Below are positions 1 to 6,256 of a stretch of 6,256 nucleotides of DNA, one piece after another (position 1 is the stretch's first letter; every line of letters starts with the position of its first letter). Under the pieces are notes generated by a model. That model worked only from the letters and a program-made list of their open reading frames with translations. It was not told where the DNA came from and made no database searches. Made by a program: the position numbers and the translations under genes. This DNA comes from a virus: IMG/VR virus record IMGVR_UViG_3300020041_000046, positions 1-6,256 of that record. The stretch is one strand, 5' to 3'.

Positions 1-121
1 CGCACTAGTCACCGTAAAATGAGCGTTAAAACAAAGCAAATGCTCAAGAAAACGCATAAGAGAATGGTTCATAATCCAATAGCATTAAGAACGTAACCAA
101 GAGCGGCAGATACGGCGCCAA
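1..121. repeat. Terminal redundancy copy A, identical to 6136-6256. It is an artefact or signature of a circular genome linearised with overlap. It carries the first 24 codons of the M15 peptidase gene (72->1, minus strand) and the 3' part of the 27-aa peptide gene.
   Basis: Base-by-base comparison by eye found 1-121 equal to 6136-6256 with no mismatch. It is a direct repeat, not inverted. The reading frame of the 5899-6207 ORF continues seamlessly across the implied junction. Confidence 0.97.
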
Positions 122-152
122 TAATAATTTTCCAAATATTATTACTTTTCAT
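69..152 (-). CDS. Hypothetical 27-aa single-pass membrane peptide (MKSNNIWKIIIGAVSAALGYVLNAIGL), a holin-like or membrane-anchor candidate
   Basis: This is the 3' part of track ORF 69..293, starting at the internal ATG at 152-150. That ATG overlaps the stop of orf64 (ATGAAAAGTAA). Its own TGA overlaps the peptidase ATG (ATGA at 72-69). It has a Lys-containing N-terminus followed by about 20 uninterrupted hydrophobic or small residues. The stretch 73-141 is covered by no other ORF. The peptide is very short, so coding status is not certain. Confidence 0.4.
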   Translation of the reverse strand: MKSNNIWKIIIGAVSAALGYVLNAIGL

Positions 153-336
153 CAGATTGAGATTTAAGTTCAACGAAATTATTTTCTTCTTTAATTGAAT
201 CCACAATAACAATAAGACCCAACGGAGAGACTCGCTCAGAATAATTTCCAAGACCATCCAGAGAATTGACAATATAAGGCGGCATAACATCACGACCAGT
301 TTGTTTTTCCTTAAGGGAAATAATAAATTTCAACAT
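142..336 (-). CDS. Hypothetical 64-aa protein, the first gene after the intergenic region
   Basis: It has an ATG start at 336-334 and a TAA stop at 144-142. Composition is balanced and charged (K/E/D/S/G/P), unlike the Leu/Ile-rich off-frame ORFs. It sits at the head of the co-oriented gene string and its stop overlaps the next start. I recognise no family motif. Confidence 0.55.
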   Translation of the reverse strand: MLKFIISLKEKQTGRDVMPPYIVNSLDGLGNYSERVSPLGLIVIVDSIKEENNFVELKSQSDEK

Positions 337-360
337 AATTATAAATTTTAAATGTTAATA

Positions 361-389
361 ATTTAATGAGTTGGTTTCTACAGGGGCAA
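361..389 (-). promoter_or_regulatory. Weak sigma70-like promoter candidate for the gene string: TTGCCC, 17 nt, TTAAAT on the minus strand
   Basis: The minus strand reads TTGCCC (389-384), then a 17-nt spacer, then TTAAAT (366-361), about 25 nt upstream of the orf64 ATG. It lies in a roughly 27% G+C tract (hand count, 337-470). Both hexamers are imperfect, and the host may not use sigma70-type consensus. Confidence 0.2.
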
Positions 390-483
390 AAGAAGACATT
401 ATTTTTGAATAAACAAAATATTTCGGAGTTTTTTTTATTCTACAGTTGGGTGTGAGTTGTGCGTTTATGGACAAGGAAAACCG

Positions 484-506
484 AATTTGAGATGATAACT
501 CAAATT
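484..506. repeat. Perfect 8-bp inverted repeat (hairpin) AATTTGAG / CTCAAATT with a 7-nt loop
   Basis: 484-491 aatttgag is the reverse complement of 499-506 ctcaaatt. The loop is atgataa (492-498). Confidence 0.6.
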
Positions 507-572
507 TCCTCCGGACACAACCAGGGGCTTCGCTTAATTAACAAGTGGATGTATACAAAGGTGTATAGGCAC

Positions 573-594
573 GGCAGGTCAGATAGAACCTGCC
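573..594. repeat. 7-bp GC-rich inverted repeat (hairpin) GGCAGGT / ACCTGCC with an 8-nt loop
   Basis: 573-579 ggcaggt pairs with 588-594 acctgcc. The loop is cagataga. TTT follows on the plus strand. Confidence 0.55.
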
Positions 595-610
595 TTTGCG
601 CACCTACGTG

Positions 611-665
611 CTAAAATACCGGAGCGGAACGCTCCTATAAGGAAGTCGCTCCGCTCCGTTTTTCG
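611..665. terminator. Intrinsic-terminator-like hairpin flanked by an A-tract and a T-tract, so possibly bidirectional. It lies downstream of VP2 in viral sense.
   Basis: The 9-bp stem is cggagcgga (620-628) paired with tccgctccg (650-658), with a 21-nt loop. On the plus strand it is preceded by aaaata and followed by ttttt. On the minus strand the same hairpin is followed by GTATTTTAG. It lies about 120 nt past the VP2 stop. Competing small hairpins exist (see findings). Confidence 0.4.
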
Positions 666-681
666 ATCAGGCCTTACGCAG

Positions 682-710
682 GCGGCGGGTGTATATCGCT
701 CAAACGCCGC
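682..710. repeat. 6-bp all-GC inverted repeat GCGGCG / CGCCGC with a 17-nt loop
   Basis: 682-687 gcggcg pairs with 705-710 cgccgc. An outer weak pairing of 669-673 with 715-719 is possible if a G-T wobble is allowed, and TTTT follows. Confidence 0.45.
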
Positions 711-779
711 GATGGGCTTTTAGTTTACCTACCGCTATAGATTATAGTATTACGAGAACCATAATCGTTACGATAGATA

Positions 780-2301: not shown

Positions 2302-4044
2302 TTAATAAGGCAAACCATTCCTATCCAAATTCTGAACAGCATAAACTTGAAAATTAACATTACATAACAACTGGTCGTAAGCAACGGAACAATTCGGACC
2401 TGAAACCTGAGGCTCAAAAATAGAGTTCAATTGCTGAGGACGAACTTTCATTGACTGATAAGACCAAGTACCGGAAGAGGTAAGAACGTCCCAGCCATCA
2501 ATAGGAGCAGCCCAAGACTGATACGCCATACCAGAACGGAACGCAGCATGGACAGTATCAATATTAGTCTTCCATTGCCAATACCGAAGATTATAACCAA
2601 GAGCACCAGAAACCTTACGACCAGGATTATTTTGAAGATTCAGACCAAGGACAGGCTGCATACCCAACTGGTCGAACGCAGGTTGGGGGAAGTCAGAAAC
2701 AACCGTAACAGTCAACTGCGGATTCTGGCCGGTCAGATTCCAATCAACCATAGGAACAGCATGATATACACACATAATAACTTGATGTTCAGCGCCACAA
2801 TCATAAGTCAACGTATGACCAGACTGAGAACTTACGCCTTTACCAGCGATTACGGCTTGAGAGTTAGCAGAGTCCAGATTGGTATTCAAGACTTCATTAA
2901 TATTGATCACGTTGGACCAACCACCAATATAATGAGCGTGATTACCCATGTATTCAGGAGCTTTAACGCCAAACTGGGCTGCCATTTGGTCTGAATAGTC
3001 CTTGCTAGAGAATTGAACTACCTCTTTCCAACGCTGGAGATATTCCGTCGCACGGATTGAAAGGGCGGAAAGGTCAGAGTTAATATTCACAAACCGAGAA
3101 GAAGAACCAGCATTAGACGCATAAGAAACAATAGAAGTTGAACCAGAAGGATTGACTAACGAAGAGTTAGAATCCGATGCAGCAGAAGAAACAACAGCCA
3201 TTGCACGATTAGACGGAGCAGAAGGAAGGAAAGTAGACGGTAGCACAGCAACCGAGCCATACTGGCTATTCGGAAGCATACCCATAAAGTAATCTTTCGG
3301 ATAATTAGCATAACGGAGCTGAAGCATCTCAGGGGCGAGGGGCAATTGAGACTTTCCGTCCCAATAATCTACATTATACGCATAAGCCAGATGCTTTTCC
3401 CATTGAGAGTCAGAGAAGAAATCATAATAAATCTTCTGATAAGCCAACAGCGGAAGAAGATTGACAGTCTGACTAGCAGAATAAACCAAAGGATTGAGAG
3501 CATCCTCAAGAGATTGAATTCCCAGATAGGCTTCGGTAATAGCGGCTTTCGCAGTGTTTGAAGGCGCAAGGAAAGAACCATATCCAAGCATGTCTAATAC
3601 CTTAGAAGCGCCATAGAGGTAAGGAAGACCGGCATCGTCAAAGACATCCTTACCATTAATCGCCTGAAGACTCAATGACAACAAGTTCAACGTCGTGTTC
3701 GGTACAGAAGTCAACATCTCGGTGTTAGAGGTATTACTAGCAGCAGAAGTCATATAATCCTGCATTTGAGTAAACGCTTGCGGCAGAGCTCGAGAAATCA
3801 AGCGTAACGGCACAGCGTAAAAGTCGTAGTATTCCTTAATACGGGTATATGCGGCCGTATTAACGGGAACAGTACGGGTAAACCAATCAGAAGAAATACG
3901 ATACTTGTTACCAGGGATAGCAATCTGCCAATAACAAGGAAGGATCTCTCCAACTTTCGCCGTAAACAATTTTTTACTAGACAAGTCAAAGGAGGAGCGA
4001 TGAACGGCAATTTTCGCTCGGTCTAGCGGATTAAAATCACTCAT
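2302..4044 (-). CDS. VP1: Microviridae major capsid protein (F/VP1 family), 580 aa
   Basis: It has an ATG at 4044-4042 and a TAA at 2304-2302. The N-terminus ...HRSSFDLSSKKLFTAKVGEILPCYW...PGNKY...RTVPVNTAAYTRIKEYYDFYAVPLRLI is the hallmark start of Phage_F-type capsid proteins (FDLS, then G-x-L-P, then P-G, then F-F/Y-V-P-x-R-L). It is one of the two largest ORFs in the genome, and its size fits non-phiX microvirus VP1. Confidence 0.95.
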   Translation of the reverse strand: MSDFNPLDRAKIAVHRSSFDLSSKKLFTAKVGEILPCYWQIAIPGNKYRISSDWFTRTVPVNTAAYTRIKEYYDFYAVPLRLISRALPQAFTQMQDYMTSAASNTSNTEMLTSVPNTTLNLLSLSLQAINGKDVFDDAGLPYLYGASKVLDMLGYGSFLAPSNTAKAAITEAYLGIQSLEDALNPLVYSASQTVNLLPLLAYQKIYYDFFSDSQWEKHLAYAYNVDYWDGKSQLPLAPEMLQLRYANYPKDYFMGMLPNSQYGSVAVLPSTFLPSAPSNRAMAVVSSAASDSNSSLVNPSGSTSIVSYASNAGSSSRFVNINSDLSALSIRATEYLQRWKEVVQFSSKDYSDQMAAQFGVKAPEYMGNHAHYIGGWSNVININEVLNTNLDSANSQAVIAGKGVSSQSGHTLTYDCGAEHQVIMCVYHAVPMVDWNLTGQNPQLTVTVVSDFPQPAFDQLGMQPVLGLNLQNNPGRKVSGALGYNLRYWQWKTNIDTVHAAFRSGMAYQSWAAPIDGWDVLTSSGTWSYQSMKVRPQQLNSIFEPQVSGPNCSVAYDQLLCNVNFQVYAVQNLDRNGLPY

Positions 4045-4060
4045 AAATAATTAATATGAA

Positions 4061-5896
4061 TTAGACCATACGGTTAAATATATTATTCGCATCATTCAGT
4101 TTCTTATGTTTAATCATATCACGGCAGTATTTCGATGAACGGTTATCCAAACACCTTTGTAAGTCGTCGCACAAATCGTTGTAATTTGCAGGTTGCGAGG
4201 CTTTAAAGGATGGTCCGACCAGACGAGAAAGAGCTGGGGAAAGTAATAATTTTCGGGAGTCATCAAAATGTAAGACGAGCGGCTTGATTCCTGCCATTCT
4301 GTCTCGAATAGTGTACGTGGAAAATGTTCCATCTTCCTCCTCCTTAACGGTCGACACTTCACATCCTGAGGCCGGTAGATAAAAATATCGCAATAAAGGG
4401 AATTCACATGTTTCTTGAATTCGCAACGAATCACACATTCGTACATAGTCCGCTTTCTTTTCATATTCTATTCCTGTTTTAATAATATAATTAATACGAG
4501 CGGAAAAAGAATCAAAATTGCCACCGATGGGAGGCAAATGCCAATTCCTAAGGAACCTACTGACATAAAGGAATAGCCGATATAATTTATTAATATAAGA
4601 TTCAATATCGACATCAGAAGAACTGCTACAGAGCCTAGTAAGGCACCGAGCGTTATGCAATATAATTTCATCTTCATCGGTCAGGTGATGATTCAATGTA
4701 AGATACTGATAATAAGCACGAACAATAGAAAGGATAGAATCGGAATTATAATCTATAATACCGAACCTTGCAATTCTTTTTGGCGAATCCGCAACAGCTC
4801 GAATAATTCTAGCAATCGCAACAGCATCGTCAAAGCGAGCACTTGAGAATCGGGGAAGTAATGTACGGATATACGACATGGGGGGAGTTGATTTAACACT
4901 AATCCCGTTGAAGTTATAGACTCGTCCATTAATGACAGAATCGATTTTTCGTTCAACCGCATGATAGACGTCTTCACCTTCCTCAAAAACCTCGCCTTTC
5001 TCAAAAAATCCAAGAGACGCTCTTTGTCGGGGTTTAAACGAGCGGCACGATCGATATAACAAGGGAGCAGAACTAAGGCTGTTAACGTAACTCGCAACGT
5101 ATGATGAAGCTCCACCACGGGCAATCTGGAAATCTGAACGACCGAGTTTCCAACTCTTATCATGACACTGTCGTAATACTTCTGAGACTTCTTTCGAGTT
5201 CGTGAATAATAAGATATGATAATGCGGGCGGAAATGGAATGGTCCGTATTCACCCACAGCGTAGAAGTGTAACGTTTCATAAGAACCTAAAACTTGATAT
5301 AAATATTTACGTAAGCGTTTAATATAGTTCTGAACATCAACATAATTCAGAAAGGGTATAAGGTTATCAACACCGTATTTTTCAGCAACGGGATATACTG
5401 AGTTGTCAACGGCCTGCGTTTTACGGATAAAACTACGAATAGCATCCATACTAAGAAACCAATTATCCTTAACAGGAACATATTCCTTGATTTCACGGTC
5501 AAACGGCACCGTGCCTTGAACTTGCGTGAAGAATACATGACGTAAAAGGGAAGAATCCTCAGGTTGATAGTCGGAAACAGGTATATAAGAGTGGCGTTCA
5601 TAACCAAAAACTTTATCCCCTGAAATACTTAAAGCATCTTCATACTCACTATGCAGAACCTCACAATTCATCAAAGGAATATGCTCATTATCATAAGTAA
5701 GCGTTACAAAATAAGAATACTTGAAAGCACTTCCGGCGGTCTTCACACGCATGGACGCTTTTTGAGCACGCTTATAAATACAGTAATCACATTGTCCGCA
5801 ATCTACAGCAATGCGCTGACCTGTGTAACGATTAGTTATAAAAGAGCGATGCTGGCAATGATCAGCAGCTTTAAGTAAATCAGGAGTAAATTTCAT
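4061..5896 (-). CDS. VP4: Rolling-circle replication initiator (HUH endonuclease, Microviridae VP4 / gene A family), 611 aa
   Basis: It has an ATG at 5896-5894 and a TAA at 4063-4061. Motif 1 is FVTLTY (aa 63-68, nt 5693-5710). The HUH motif is HYHILLF (aa 225-231, nt 5204-5224). The two-tyrosine motif is YVASYVNS (aa 266-273, nt 5078-5101), compared with phiX174 A protein YVAKYVNK. The N-terminal Cys/His cluster is C14-x-H16...C33-x2-C36-x2-C39. Confidence 0.93.
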   Translation of the reverse strand: MKFTPDLLKAADHCQHRSFITNRYTGQRIAVDCGQCDYCIYKRAQKASMRVKTAGSAFKYSYFVTLTYDNEHIPLMNCEVLHSEYEDALSISGDKVFGYERHSYIPVSDYQPEDSSLLRHVFFTQVQGTVPFDREIKEYVPVKDNWFLSMDAIRSFIRKTQAVDNSVYPVAEKYGVDNLIPFLNYVDVQNYIKRLRKYLYQVLGSYETLHFYAVGEYGPFHFRPHYHILLFTNSKEVSEVLRQCHDKSWKLGRSDFQIARGGASSYVASYVNSLSSAPLLYRSCRSFKPRQRASLGFFEKGEVFEEGEDVYHAVERKIDSVINGRVYNFNGISVKSTPPMSYIRTLLPRFSSARFDDAVAIARIIRAVADSPKRIARFGIIDYNSDSILSIVRAYYQYLTLNHHLTDEDEIILHNARCLTRLCSSSSDVDIESYINKLYRLFLYVSRFLRNWHLPPIGGNFDSFSARINYIIKTGIEYEKKADYVRMCDSLRIQETCEFPLLRYFYLPASGCEVSTVKEEEDGTFSTYTIRDRMAGIKPLVLHFDDSRKLLLSPALSRLVGPSFKASQPANYNDLCDDLQRCLDNRSSKYCRDMIKHKKLNDANNIFNRMV

Positions 5897-5898
5897 AA

Positions 5899-6207
5899 TT
5901 ATTTTCTTTTATCAATCACTTGGCGACGATTACGTGAACCAAATGAAACATGAATAAAATTAGTATAAATAATAAGTTGATCAAAAGGAGAAATATGATC
6001 AGAATAACCATGAATCATCTCAAGCAAATTATTAAAACTGGTAGACCCGTAAGGCTTGATATCAATAGCTTCGCCTATTAAATGTTGAGAATTAGGGACG
6101 CCATTACAAGCCTTATTCTGTTTAGGAGTACGCTTCGCACTAGTCACCGTAAAATGAGCGTTAAAACAAAGCAAATGCTCAAGAAAACGCATAAGAGAAT
6201 GGTTCAT
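5899..6207 (-). CDS. Minimal zinc D,D- or L,D-peptidase of the M15 (Peptidase_M15_3/M15A-like) cell-wall hydrolase family, 102 aa
   Basis: It has an ATG at 6207-6205, with an in-frame stop five codons upstream when read through the circular junction. The TAA at 5901-5899 lies 2 nt before the VP4 ATG. The sequence ...FTVTSAKRTPKQNKACNGVPNSQHLIGEAIDI... (nt 6058-6090 cover SQHLIGEAIDI) matches the family signature [ST]SGYR-x5-N-x3-GG-x3-S-x-H-x2-G-x-A-x-D-[IF]. The distal ...YTNFIHVSFG supplies the third ligand His (aa 86, nt 5950-5952). There is no signal peptide or TM segment. Confidence 0.85.
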   Translation of the reverse strand: MNHSLMRFLEHLLCFNAHFTVTSAKRTPKQNKACNGVPNSQHLIGEAIDIKPYGSTSFNNLLEMIHGYSDHISPFDQLIIYTNFIHVSFGSRNRRQVIDKRK

Positions 6208-6256
6208 AATCCAATAGCATTAAGAACGTAACCAAGAGCGGCAGATACGGCGCCAA
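6136..6256. repeat. Terminal redundancy copy B, identical to 1-121
   Basis: Same comparison as for copy A. It contains the peptidase 5' end (6136-6207) and a truncated copy of the 27-aa peptide gene (6204-6256). Confidence 0.97.

Follow-up and report, generated by a model that had tools for sequence, protein, structure and literature searches.

A 102-aa M15A-type zinc peptidase of a gut microvirus, a probable endolysin, and the conserved membrane peptide encoded beside it

What does a gene for a cell-wall peptidase do in a microvirus, and does its product serve in lysis? Protein E of phiX174 is a small membrane protein that inhibits MraY; its gene is overprinted in gene D, and the phage has no muralytic enzyme. 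Lysis by microviruses other than phiX174 has hardly been tested, and the clade considered here is common in mammalian gut samples. The window, i.e. the whole stretch of 6,256 nt that was analysed, resembles phiX174 in that a small membrane protein appears to be involved but differs from it by a predicted stand-alone muralytic enzyme.

The two ends of the window are exact duplicates (1–121 = 6136–6256). The window thus corresponds to a circular microvirus genome of 6135 nt with an assembly overlap, and the coding-strand sequence 5' of the peptidase gene resumes at position 121, running downwards. The genome has a G+C content of 40.7% and the minus strand carries every substantial ORF (Table 1).

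Table 1. Features of the window.
Feature	Position	Strand	Basis or remark
Pilot protein VP2	780–1847	minus	
Scaffold-sized ORF	1847–2299	minus	
Major capsid protein	2302–4044	minus	Pfam Phage_F, PHROG 514
Replication initiator VP4/Rep, 611 aa	4061–5896	minus	Pfam REP_ORF2-G2P, PHROG 942
M15A / Peptidase_M15_3 zinc peptidase, 102 aa, probable endolysin	5899–6207 including stop	minus	ORF, Pfam, PHROG, AlphaFold2, Foldseek, dN/dS
SxHxxGxAxDI motif, S40–I50 (SQHLIGEAIDI)	6090–6058	minus	translation, 1LBU profile alignment
Predicted zinc ligand H42	6084–6082	minus	aligned on 1LBU H154
Predicted zinc ligand D49	6063–6061	minus	aligned on 1LBU D161
FIHVSF, (W/F/H)xH motif with subfamily-specific S88	5958–5941	minus	translation, BLASTP against ST79 WVHIGL
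Predicted third zinc ligand H86	5952–5950	minus	aligned on ST79 endolysin H119
R26, counterpart of 1LBU R138	6130–6132	minus	profile alignment; invariant
27-aa single-pass membrane peptide MKSNNIWKIIIGAVSAALGYVLNAIGL, complete copy, 84-nt gene	69–152	minus	translation, hydropathy, conservation
Second, truncated 3' copy of the membrane-peptide gene, GAVSAALGYVLNAIGL then stop	6204–6256	minus	part of the terminal duplication; immediately precedes the peptidase ATG (6207)
Conserved 64-aa ORF without assigned function, at the head of the accessory block	142–336	minus	upstream of the membrane peptide

The peptidase ORF starts with ATG and ends with TAA. As had been predicted, this stop lies 2 nt ahead of the rep ATG: the minus strand reads AAA TAA TT ATG at the junction, with the rep ATG at 5896. 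Nearly all of 57 related loci have a spacer of either 2 or 5 nt. The gene had also been described as part of the core operon. Co-orientation and tight spacing make this plausible, but scans of the window for sigma-70 promoters (18 found, 15.7 expected) and for intrinsic terminators (5 found, 4.9 expected) gave numbers at chance level. A single Bacteroides-type -33/-7 match, which is not significant, lies inside or beside the capsid gene. The 64-aa ORF at the head of the accessory block is conserved, has a codon-position pattern that fits its own frame and is called by gene finders; its homologues in relatives are annotated “hypothetical protein”, and searches of Pfam and PHROG with it returned no match.

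The peptidase ORF is a genuine gene, maintained by purifying selection. Over 56 aligned loci its variability is 0.43, 0.28 and 0.81 at codon positions 1, 2 and 3, and dN/dS is 0.16 (663 pairs, mean dS 0.87). The peptidase is found at 60% identity or more in 33 phage records and the capsid, at the same threshold, in 34; from these similar counts the peptidase appears to belong to the core genes of the clade. A search of 5.8 billion proteins gave 1627 homologous clusters (90%), and most of those listed are on contigs of 6.0–6.4 kb. A look-up by exact sequence gave no recorded contig for the window protein.

The profile of Pfam PF08291 (Peptidase_M15_3) matches the protein with 38.1 bits for a gathering cut-off of 23.2 (E = 1.8e-9; profile positions 32–108 of 108), and so does PHROG 894, “endolysin” (E = 1.1e-15). 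When the PDB was searched with the single sequence only chance matches were obtained (E about 1); the structural match emerged with a family profile and with a search by fold. AlphaFold2 was run with an alignment of the window protein, 19 microvirus homologues and 26 tailed-phage or bacterial homologues, and predicted a compact and confident fold despite the short form (pLDDT 94, pTM 0.85). The best PDB match of this model in Foldseek is 1LBU, the type enzyme of M15A (E = 9e-4, rmsd 1.8 Å over 78 columns); VanY, the RB49 L-Ala-D-Glu peptidase and LdcB match more weakly (E above 0.05). In the viral library BFVD there are 53 matches with E ≤ 0.001, most of the named ones being Peptidase M15 or M15A. 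On these profile and fold matches we assign the protein to MEROPS subfamily M15A (Pfam Peptidase_M15_3), placed in clan MD (LAS enzymes), as a single-domain, stripped-down member. The M15 identity put forward in the original prediction is thus borne out by a profile score above the curated threshold, by the PHROG match and by a LAS-type, 1LBU-like predicted fold.

The H-x6-D...H pattern and the SxHxxGxAxDI signature, also claimed beforehand, are present in the translation (H42, D49, H86). A profile built from the family alignment matches 1LBU with E = 1.4e-10 and sets R26, H42 and D49 on R138, H154 and D161. The zinc ligands of 1LBU are H154, D161 and H197, and R138 is likely to contact the substrate carboxylate (PMC13461873; for the numbering we relied on that paper and on our own count on the aligned sequence). 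For the third ligand, the BLASTP alignment to the endolysin of Burkholderia phage ST79 sets FIHVSF against WVHIGL, i.e. F84-I-H86 against W117-V-H119, and H119 is a metal ligand in that enzyme (PMC5025407). R26, D49 and H86 show no variation in 390 homologues, and among the homologues that cover it H42 differs in 4 representatives only. None of the 120 closest microvirus clusters has lost any of the three predicted ligands or R26; H42 and D49 are also kept in all 120 proteins similar to the endolysin of the tailed phage Siara.

The serine that follows the third His by two positions had been singled out as an oddity which could alter activity or specificity. This does not hold. Among the 130 of 150 listed representatives that cover residue 88, 107 have Ser, 19 Gly, 2 Ala and 2 Asp, and all 120 relatives of the Siara protein have Ser. 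Ser or Gly is thus usual in homologues, and the active ST79 endolysin reads H-I-G. Likewise 1LBU reads H195-T-H197-V-A at its third ligand, i.e. Val and a small residue after the His as in the window protein. The subfamily is further marked by an invariant F-D-Q-L-I strand (D76, Q77), and position 84 is F, W or H among homologues. From these alignments Ser88 reads as part of a subfamily signature, FDQLI...[F/W/H]xH[VI][S/G].

As to the general base, the sequence pointed to neither an acidic residue nor a His for this role, which counts against an endolysin function. The general base of 1LBU, His195 of the H195-x-H197 pair, is Phe in the window protein, and the Asp found two positions after the third His in LysPM1 is Ser. 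With the ligand set and R26 in place, we infer that the window protein is probably active.

Homologues are typically 130–150 aa long, and their alignment to the window protein starts near their residue 45–55. The 102-aa form, 30–45 residues shorter, thus has to do without some 35–45 N-terminal residues and, by this alignment, appears as a minimal catalytic core; that it is near the minimum size for the fold had been rightly noted, the comparison holding also with the 116-aa LysPM1. The absence of the N-terminal segment could mean reduced or altered activity, which counts against an endolysin function.

The closest relatives that we found outside the microviruses are the “endolysin endopeptidase” of Stenotrophomonas phage Siara (YP_010677132; 43% identity in the alignment, 48% in a tblastn segment) and bacterial “D-Ala-D-Ala carboxypeptidase family metallohydrolases”. 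Siara-type proteins and the window protein have in common the invariant residues S23, R26, N31, G36, S40, H42, G45, A47, D49, D76, Q77, H86, S88 and R94. The Siara protein is longer (146 aa) and differs from the microvirus form at F84 and Y81, which are Trp and Glu in it. Its gene is directly followed by those of a holin/antiholin, a holin, an ORF with a signal-peptide motif and an o-spanin.

The ST79 endolysin (“peptidase M15A”) is 33% identical over 82 residues. It shares the SxHxxGxAxD, FDQLI and (W/F)xH motifs with the window protein, and neither has an Asp after the third His (H-I-G and H-V-S respectively). This enzyme lyses permeabilised Gram-negative cells and degrades the E. coli wall in zymograms (PMC5025407). 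Disparities nevertheless appear: ST79 endolysin has 149 aa with an extra N-terminal segment, and it sits in a P2-type cassette between a 134-aa holin-family gene and Rz-like spanins, whereas the window has a 27-aa peptide and no spanin candidate. LysPM1 of Proteus phage Homer is a Zn-dependent, single-domain Peptidase_M15_3 endolysin of 116 aa (PMC13461873). It resembles the window protein by its H/D/H triad, F-x-H motif, conserved Arg and small single domain; it differs by D106, at +2 after the third His, for which its authors suggest a role in proton transfer (PMC13461873), while the window protein is one of the Ser/Gly subfamily, with 14 residues fewer than LysPM1. As for 1LBU, this secreted carboxypeptidase of 213 aa carries an additional wall-binding domain at its N-terminus and is not a lysis enzyme.

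We looked in the peptidase for a signal peptide, a SAR signal-anchor or a membrane segment and found none, in agreement with the original prediction: the highest 19-residue hydropathy is only 0.79, and the N-terminus forms an amphipathic helix within the predicted fold. Such an enzyme had been expected to need a membrane-permeabilising partner (or packaging into the virion), and a small membrane peptide does adjoin it. The TGA of the 27-aa peptide overlaps the ATG of the peptidase (ATGA). The peptide has one hydrophobic span, with a 19-residue Kyte-Doolittle maximum of 2.0. Of the 58 loci examined, 57 have a readable peptide, and in 55 of these 57 its gene overlaps the peptidase start as ATGA; variability at its codon positions 1, 2 and 3 (0.22, 0.07 and 0.69) fits its own frame, and dN/dS is 0.07. 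Relatives at 60–62% peptidase identity retain it, and at 47–50% an analogous peptide, MKSETKSKVWSAIIAAIVSLLTSITQIFS, ends two codons before the peptidase. In mar63 (44% peptidase identity) the peptidase is present and the membrane peptide absent, which weighs against the reading of the two as an endolysin pair.

The features expected of a holin are lacking. The peptide has no significant match to a Pfam or PHROG family, recognised holin families included, and it stops inside its hydrophobic span, i.e. has no charged C-terminal tail; both weigh against a holin role. To our knowledge it is also shorter than any holin. Matches of the membrane peptide of a relative to “holin” (E = 0.03–0.06) were discarded as hydrophobic noise. 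A search of the coding strand for an o-spanin lipobox gave no lipobox-bearing ORF, so that the spanin which a canonical lysis cassette has for a Gram-negative host is missing, which counts against the endolysin reading; the cassette features that the locus does have are a muralytic-type enzyme without signal and an adjacent small membrane protein with conserved ATGA coupling. The partner expected by the original prediction is therefore there as a conserved membrane peptide, but not with the family or tail features of a holin, and we regard it as a candidate holin-like partner of the peptidase. A very hydrophobic 31-aa ORF inside the peptidase gene (6011–5916, minus) was considered separately as an overprint of the phiX174 E kind. 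It was rejected: it is interrupted by a stop in 11 of 36 relatives, mostly has no ATG, and the third positions of the peptidase vary freely there.

We consider it probable that the peptidase is a microvirus endolysin to which the coupled membrane peptide gives access to the wall, lysis following from cleavage of stems or cross-links. Having no export signal, the peptidase would stay in the cytoplasm after its synthesis until, late in infection, the 27-aa peptide permeabilises the inner membrane and lets the enzyme reach the peptidoglycan, where cutting of the peptide stems or cross-links would make the cell burst. That lysis is the purpose of the enzyme is what the coupled gene pair and the endolysin relatives suggest to us. 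A stronger form of this proposal, which we hold tentatively and with some doubt, is that the peptide (as the 27-aa form, or as a 73-aa form that starts at 290, has three segments and two starts and is encoded as an overprint on the upstream ORF) makes up, with the M15A enzyme of 102 aa, a complete miniaturised holin-endolysin system, the smallest pair described. If true, this abundant clade of gut microviruses would resemble tailed phages in lysing its Bacteroidales hosts with two components, rather than with a single “protein antibiotic” in the manner of phiX174.

The membrane peptide, or another product, could instead be the main lysis effector, like phiX174 E or levivirus Sgl, the peptidase being an accessory that speeds the breakdown of the wall or clears debris. 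This would fit the phiX174-type microviruses, which have a single lysis membrane protein and no muralytic enzyme (also PMC3394797), and the selection values given above, which are stricter for the peptide than for the peptidase. It would also fit distant capsid relatives integrated in Prevotellaceae genomes: the peptidase was sought in these prophages and is absent from all, so that such viruses can do without it. We nevertheless judge this distribution of roles unlikely. A cytoplasmic muralytic enzyme that is retained under strong selection in a 6.1-kb genome, apparently as a core gene of its clade, points to a main role; its relatives in Siara and ST79 are the sole muralytic genes of canonical lysis cassettes; and it is the peptidase, not the peptide, that mar63 retains. 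The fold alone does not establish a lysis role, because BFVD also contains the M15A domain as a fused part of Gp5-like baseplate or tail proteins, and of very large virion proteins, in tailed phages; together with the relatives in lysis cassettes, these fusions indicate that it serves both lysis and entry in those phages. The microvirus peptidase might accordingly be packaged in a few copies as a virion-associated entry enzyme, opening the peptidoglycan locally for the DNA pilot protein. A precedent could be Gp7 of microvirus Ebor, a wall hydrolase detected in purified virions (PMC11980548), but in trace amounts only. Moreover, the peptidase is neither fused to nor overlapping the VP2 pilot protein, its sequence holds no hint of capsid targeting, and its gene lies in the accessory block beside the membrane peptide, like holin-endolysin pairs. 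A role in entry thus seems to us rather improbable.

It is very improbable that the peptidase is a catalytically dead or re-purposed remnant, e.g. a wall-binding or regulatory protein, which has lost hydrolysis together with its N-terminal third and the acidic or His catalytic residue beside the third ligand. Its shortness and the replacements at the two candidate positions (Phe for the general-base His195 of 1LBU, Ser for the Asp proposed for LysPM1) could be read in this way. But the ST79 endolysin, which is experimentally active, and that of Siara share these F/W-x-H and S/G features; conservation of the metal ligands and R26 throughout the closest microvirus clusters is unexpected for a pseudoenzyme; and the 102-aa form is still predicted to fold compactly. 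Against the endolysin reading itself, the literature searched contained no experiments on microvirus M15 peptidases.

Concerning the host, a search of reference genomes with the single capsid sequence found nothing. With an alignment as query it then found distant prophages, integrated in a Bacteroidales chromosome and in long contigs from Paraprevotella, Xylanibacter and Prevotella, with capsids at 26–37% identity. These matches support, at a distance, the “alpavirus-like” label given to the virus and suggest a Gram-negative Bacteroidales host.

That a microvirus encodes an M15 peptidase is correct but already known, having been reported since 2012. Peptidases of the M15_3 type were described in 11 human-associated microviruses (10 from gut, 1 from lung) by Roux et al. 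2012, who argued that the genes had been acquired horizontally and suggested that the products act as endolysins (PMC3394797). Microviruses have few accessory genes, and Kirchberger et al. 2022 count peptidases among these and consider them likely to act in lysis (PMC9239249), and M15 peptidases were noted in cultured roseophage microviruses in 2024 (PMC11499846). In GenBank, OP549867 encodes a 102-aa “peptidase [Microviridae sp.]” (UYL88414.1) that is 83% identical and lies between the pilot protein and Rep; the group of Microviridae records with such a “peptidase” also includes the Dulem and bajarodmic viruses. The genome of the window is one more member of the gut M15_3 Microviridae group, with no substantive difference, and given these precedents the novelty of the finding had been overrated. 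The accompanying statement that such peptidases were noted sporadically and never characterised stands for the M15 type, as far as the literature searched goes, but not for microvirus wall hydrolases in general: Ebor Gp7 was verified in 2025 to degrade peptidoglycan in a zymogram, and the same genome encodes a 45-aa membrane protein (PMC11980548). Gp7 has 146 aa, its best HHpred match is 6SSC, and it comes from a different microvirus lineage with an alphaproteobacterial host. We take 6SSC to be an Amidase_2-type enzyme, in which case Gp7 probably has a different fold.

What the present analysis adds is that the supposed anomaly at Ser88 is cleared up and that an unannotated partner peptide is pointed out. 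As a lysis module, a 102-aa enzyme with a 27-aa peptide would be very small and easy to test, and the enzyme by itself would be a compact scaffold against the Gram-negative cell wall. Roux et al. noted an adjacent “unknown ORF” in their microviruses but did not record the membrane peptide of 27 aa, and the literature searched offered no description of this small partner. The gene of the membrane peptide is unannotated in the GenBank relatives examined and uncalled on the metagenome contigs; the minimum gene length of Prodigal is 90 nt, and this gene has 84. Three Dulem virus records have a peptidase CDS that extends by 21 codons over the membrane peptide, probably from a wrong start.

Upstream of the 27-aa membrane peptide its frame continues for 46 further codons without a stop. 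Translated as a whole, this extended frame would encode a protein of 73 aa that has three hydrophobic segments and an internal second start, and the predicted frame is overprinted, in +1, on the conserved 64-aa ORF (ORF64). Given the ORF64 protein and the codon usage of the genome, the chance of an open 73-aa frame is about 0.009 in the window, and the same calculation gives 0.03–0.04 for an open extension frame in two Dulem relatives. The codon-position signal over the extension is mixed: positions -240 to -181 fit ORF64 alone, while at positions -180 to -121 the third codon positions of ORF64 are unusually quiet. In the related sequence L067 the extension frame is interrupted by stops. A dual-start, holin-sized protein encoded by the extended frame is possible but unproven.

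Relatives with peptidase identities as low as about 60% also have ORF64, there annotated "hypothetical protein". L066, L067 and mar63 (a relative with 44% peptidase identity that does not have the membrane peptide) carry at the same position an ORF of similar size with visibly similar residues. ORF64 gave no match in Pfam or PHROG.

The "peptidase" CDSs of three Dulem viruses in GenBank (L063, L064 and L065) are annotated with a start 21 codons too far upstream. The extra codons, in the peptidase frame, run across the conserved membrane-peptide gene, which is read in another frame. In these three genomes translation probably begins at an internal Met, the one aligned with M1 of the window protein.

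Coordinates of the features described in this section
Feature	Sequence	Position	Strand	Description
27-aa peptide frame with its upstream extension	window	69-290	minus	overlaps ORF 142-336 (minus)
ORF64	window	142-336	minus	64 aa, acidic, conserved; head of accessory block
Gap, VP2 to 64-aa ORF	window	337-779		443 nt
Hairpin GGAGCG-TTC-CGCTCC	window	621-635	minus	G+C-rich, then T-rich run
Rep	window	4061-5896	minus	611 aa (long)
Terminal direct repeat	window	1-121 = 6136-6256		exact, 121 nt
GenBank "peptidase" CDS	L063, Dulem virus 238	3985-4359
GenBank "peptidase" CDS	L064, Dulem virus 226	3935-4309
GenBank "peptidase" CDS	L065, Dulem virus 243	3999-4373
Capsid fragment	L070, Saccharospirillum alexandrii scaffold			scaffold of 1924 nt
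Capsid fragment	L073, Marinomonas arctica contig			contig of 1402 nt

As the sole clean stem-loop of the one long non-coding stretch, the hairpin may act as a terminator or origin element; across the genome such sites occur at chance level. The Rep proteins of the close relatives fall into two size classes, 558–559 aa versus about 604–614 aa. The additional stretch of the long Rep is its C-terminal part, and the Pfam Rep domain is limited to residues 186–272 of the window Rep.

The window is a 6135-nt circular genome plus an assembly overlap, so that it holds two copies of the peptidase gene's start and two of the membrane-peptide gene's end. Two copies each of the peptidase, Rep and capsid genes are carried by the 9417-nt ENA contig NODE_2277 (L080/L082). 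This contig does not represent a larger virus but a 6.1-kb circle assembled as a 1.5-fold concatemer.

The capsid fragments of L070 and L073, both from assemblies of gammaproteobacterial isolates, share 37–40% identity with the window capsid. They are nearer to it than most Prevotellaceae prophage capsids, which mostly show 26–32% over most of the protein, L079 alone having a 65% segment. The two fragments could be contamination, or a sign of related microviruses infecting Gammaproteobacteria. The tailed phages with the nearest relatives of the peptidase likewise have Stenotrophomonas and Pseudomonas as hosts.
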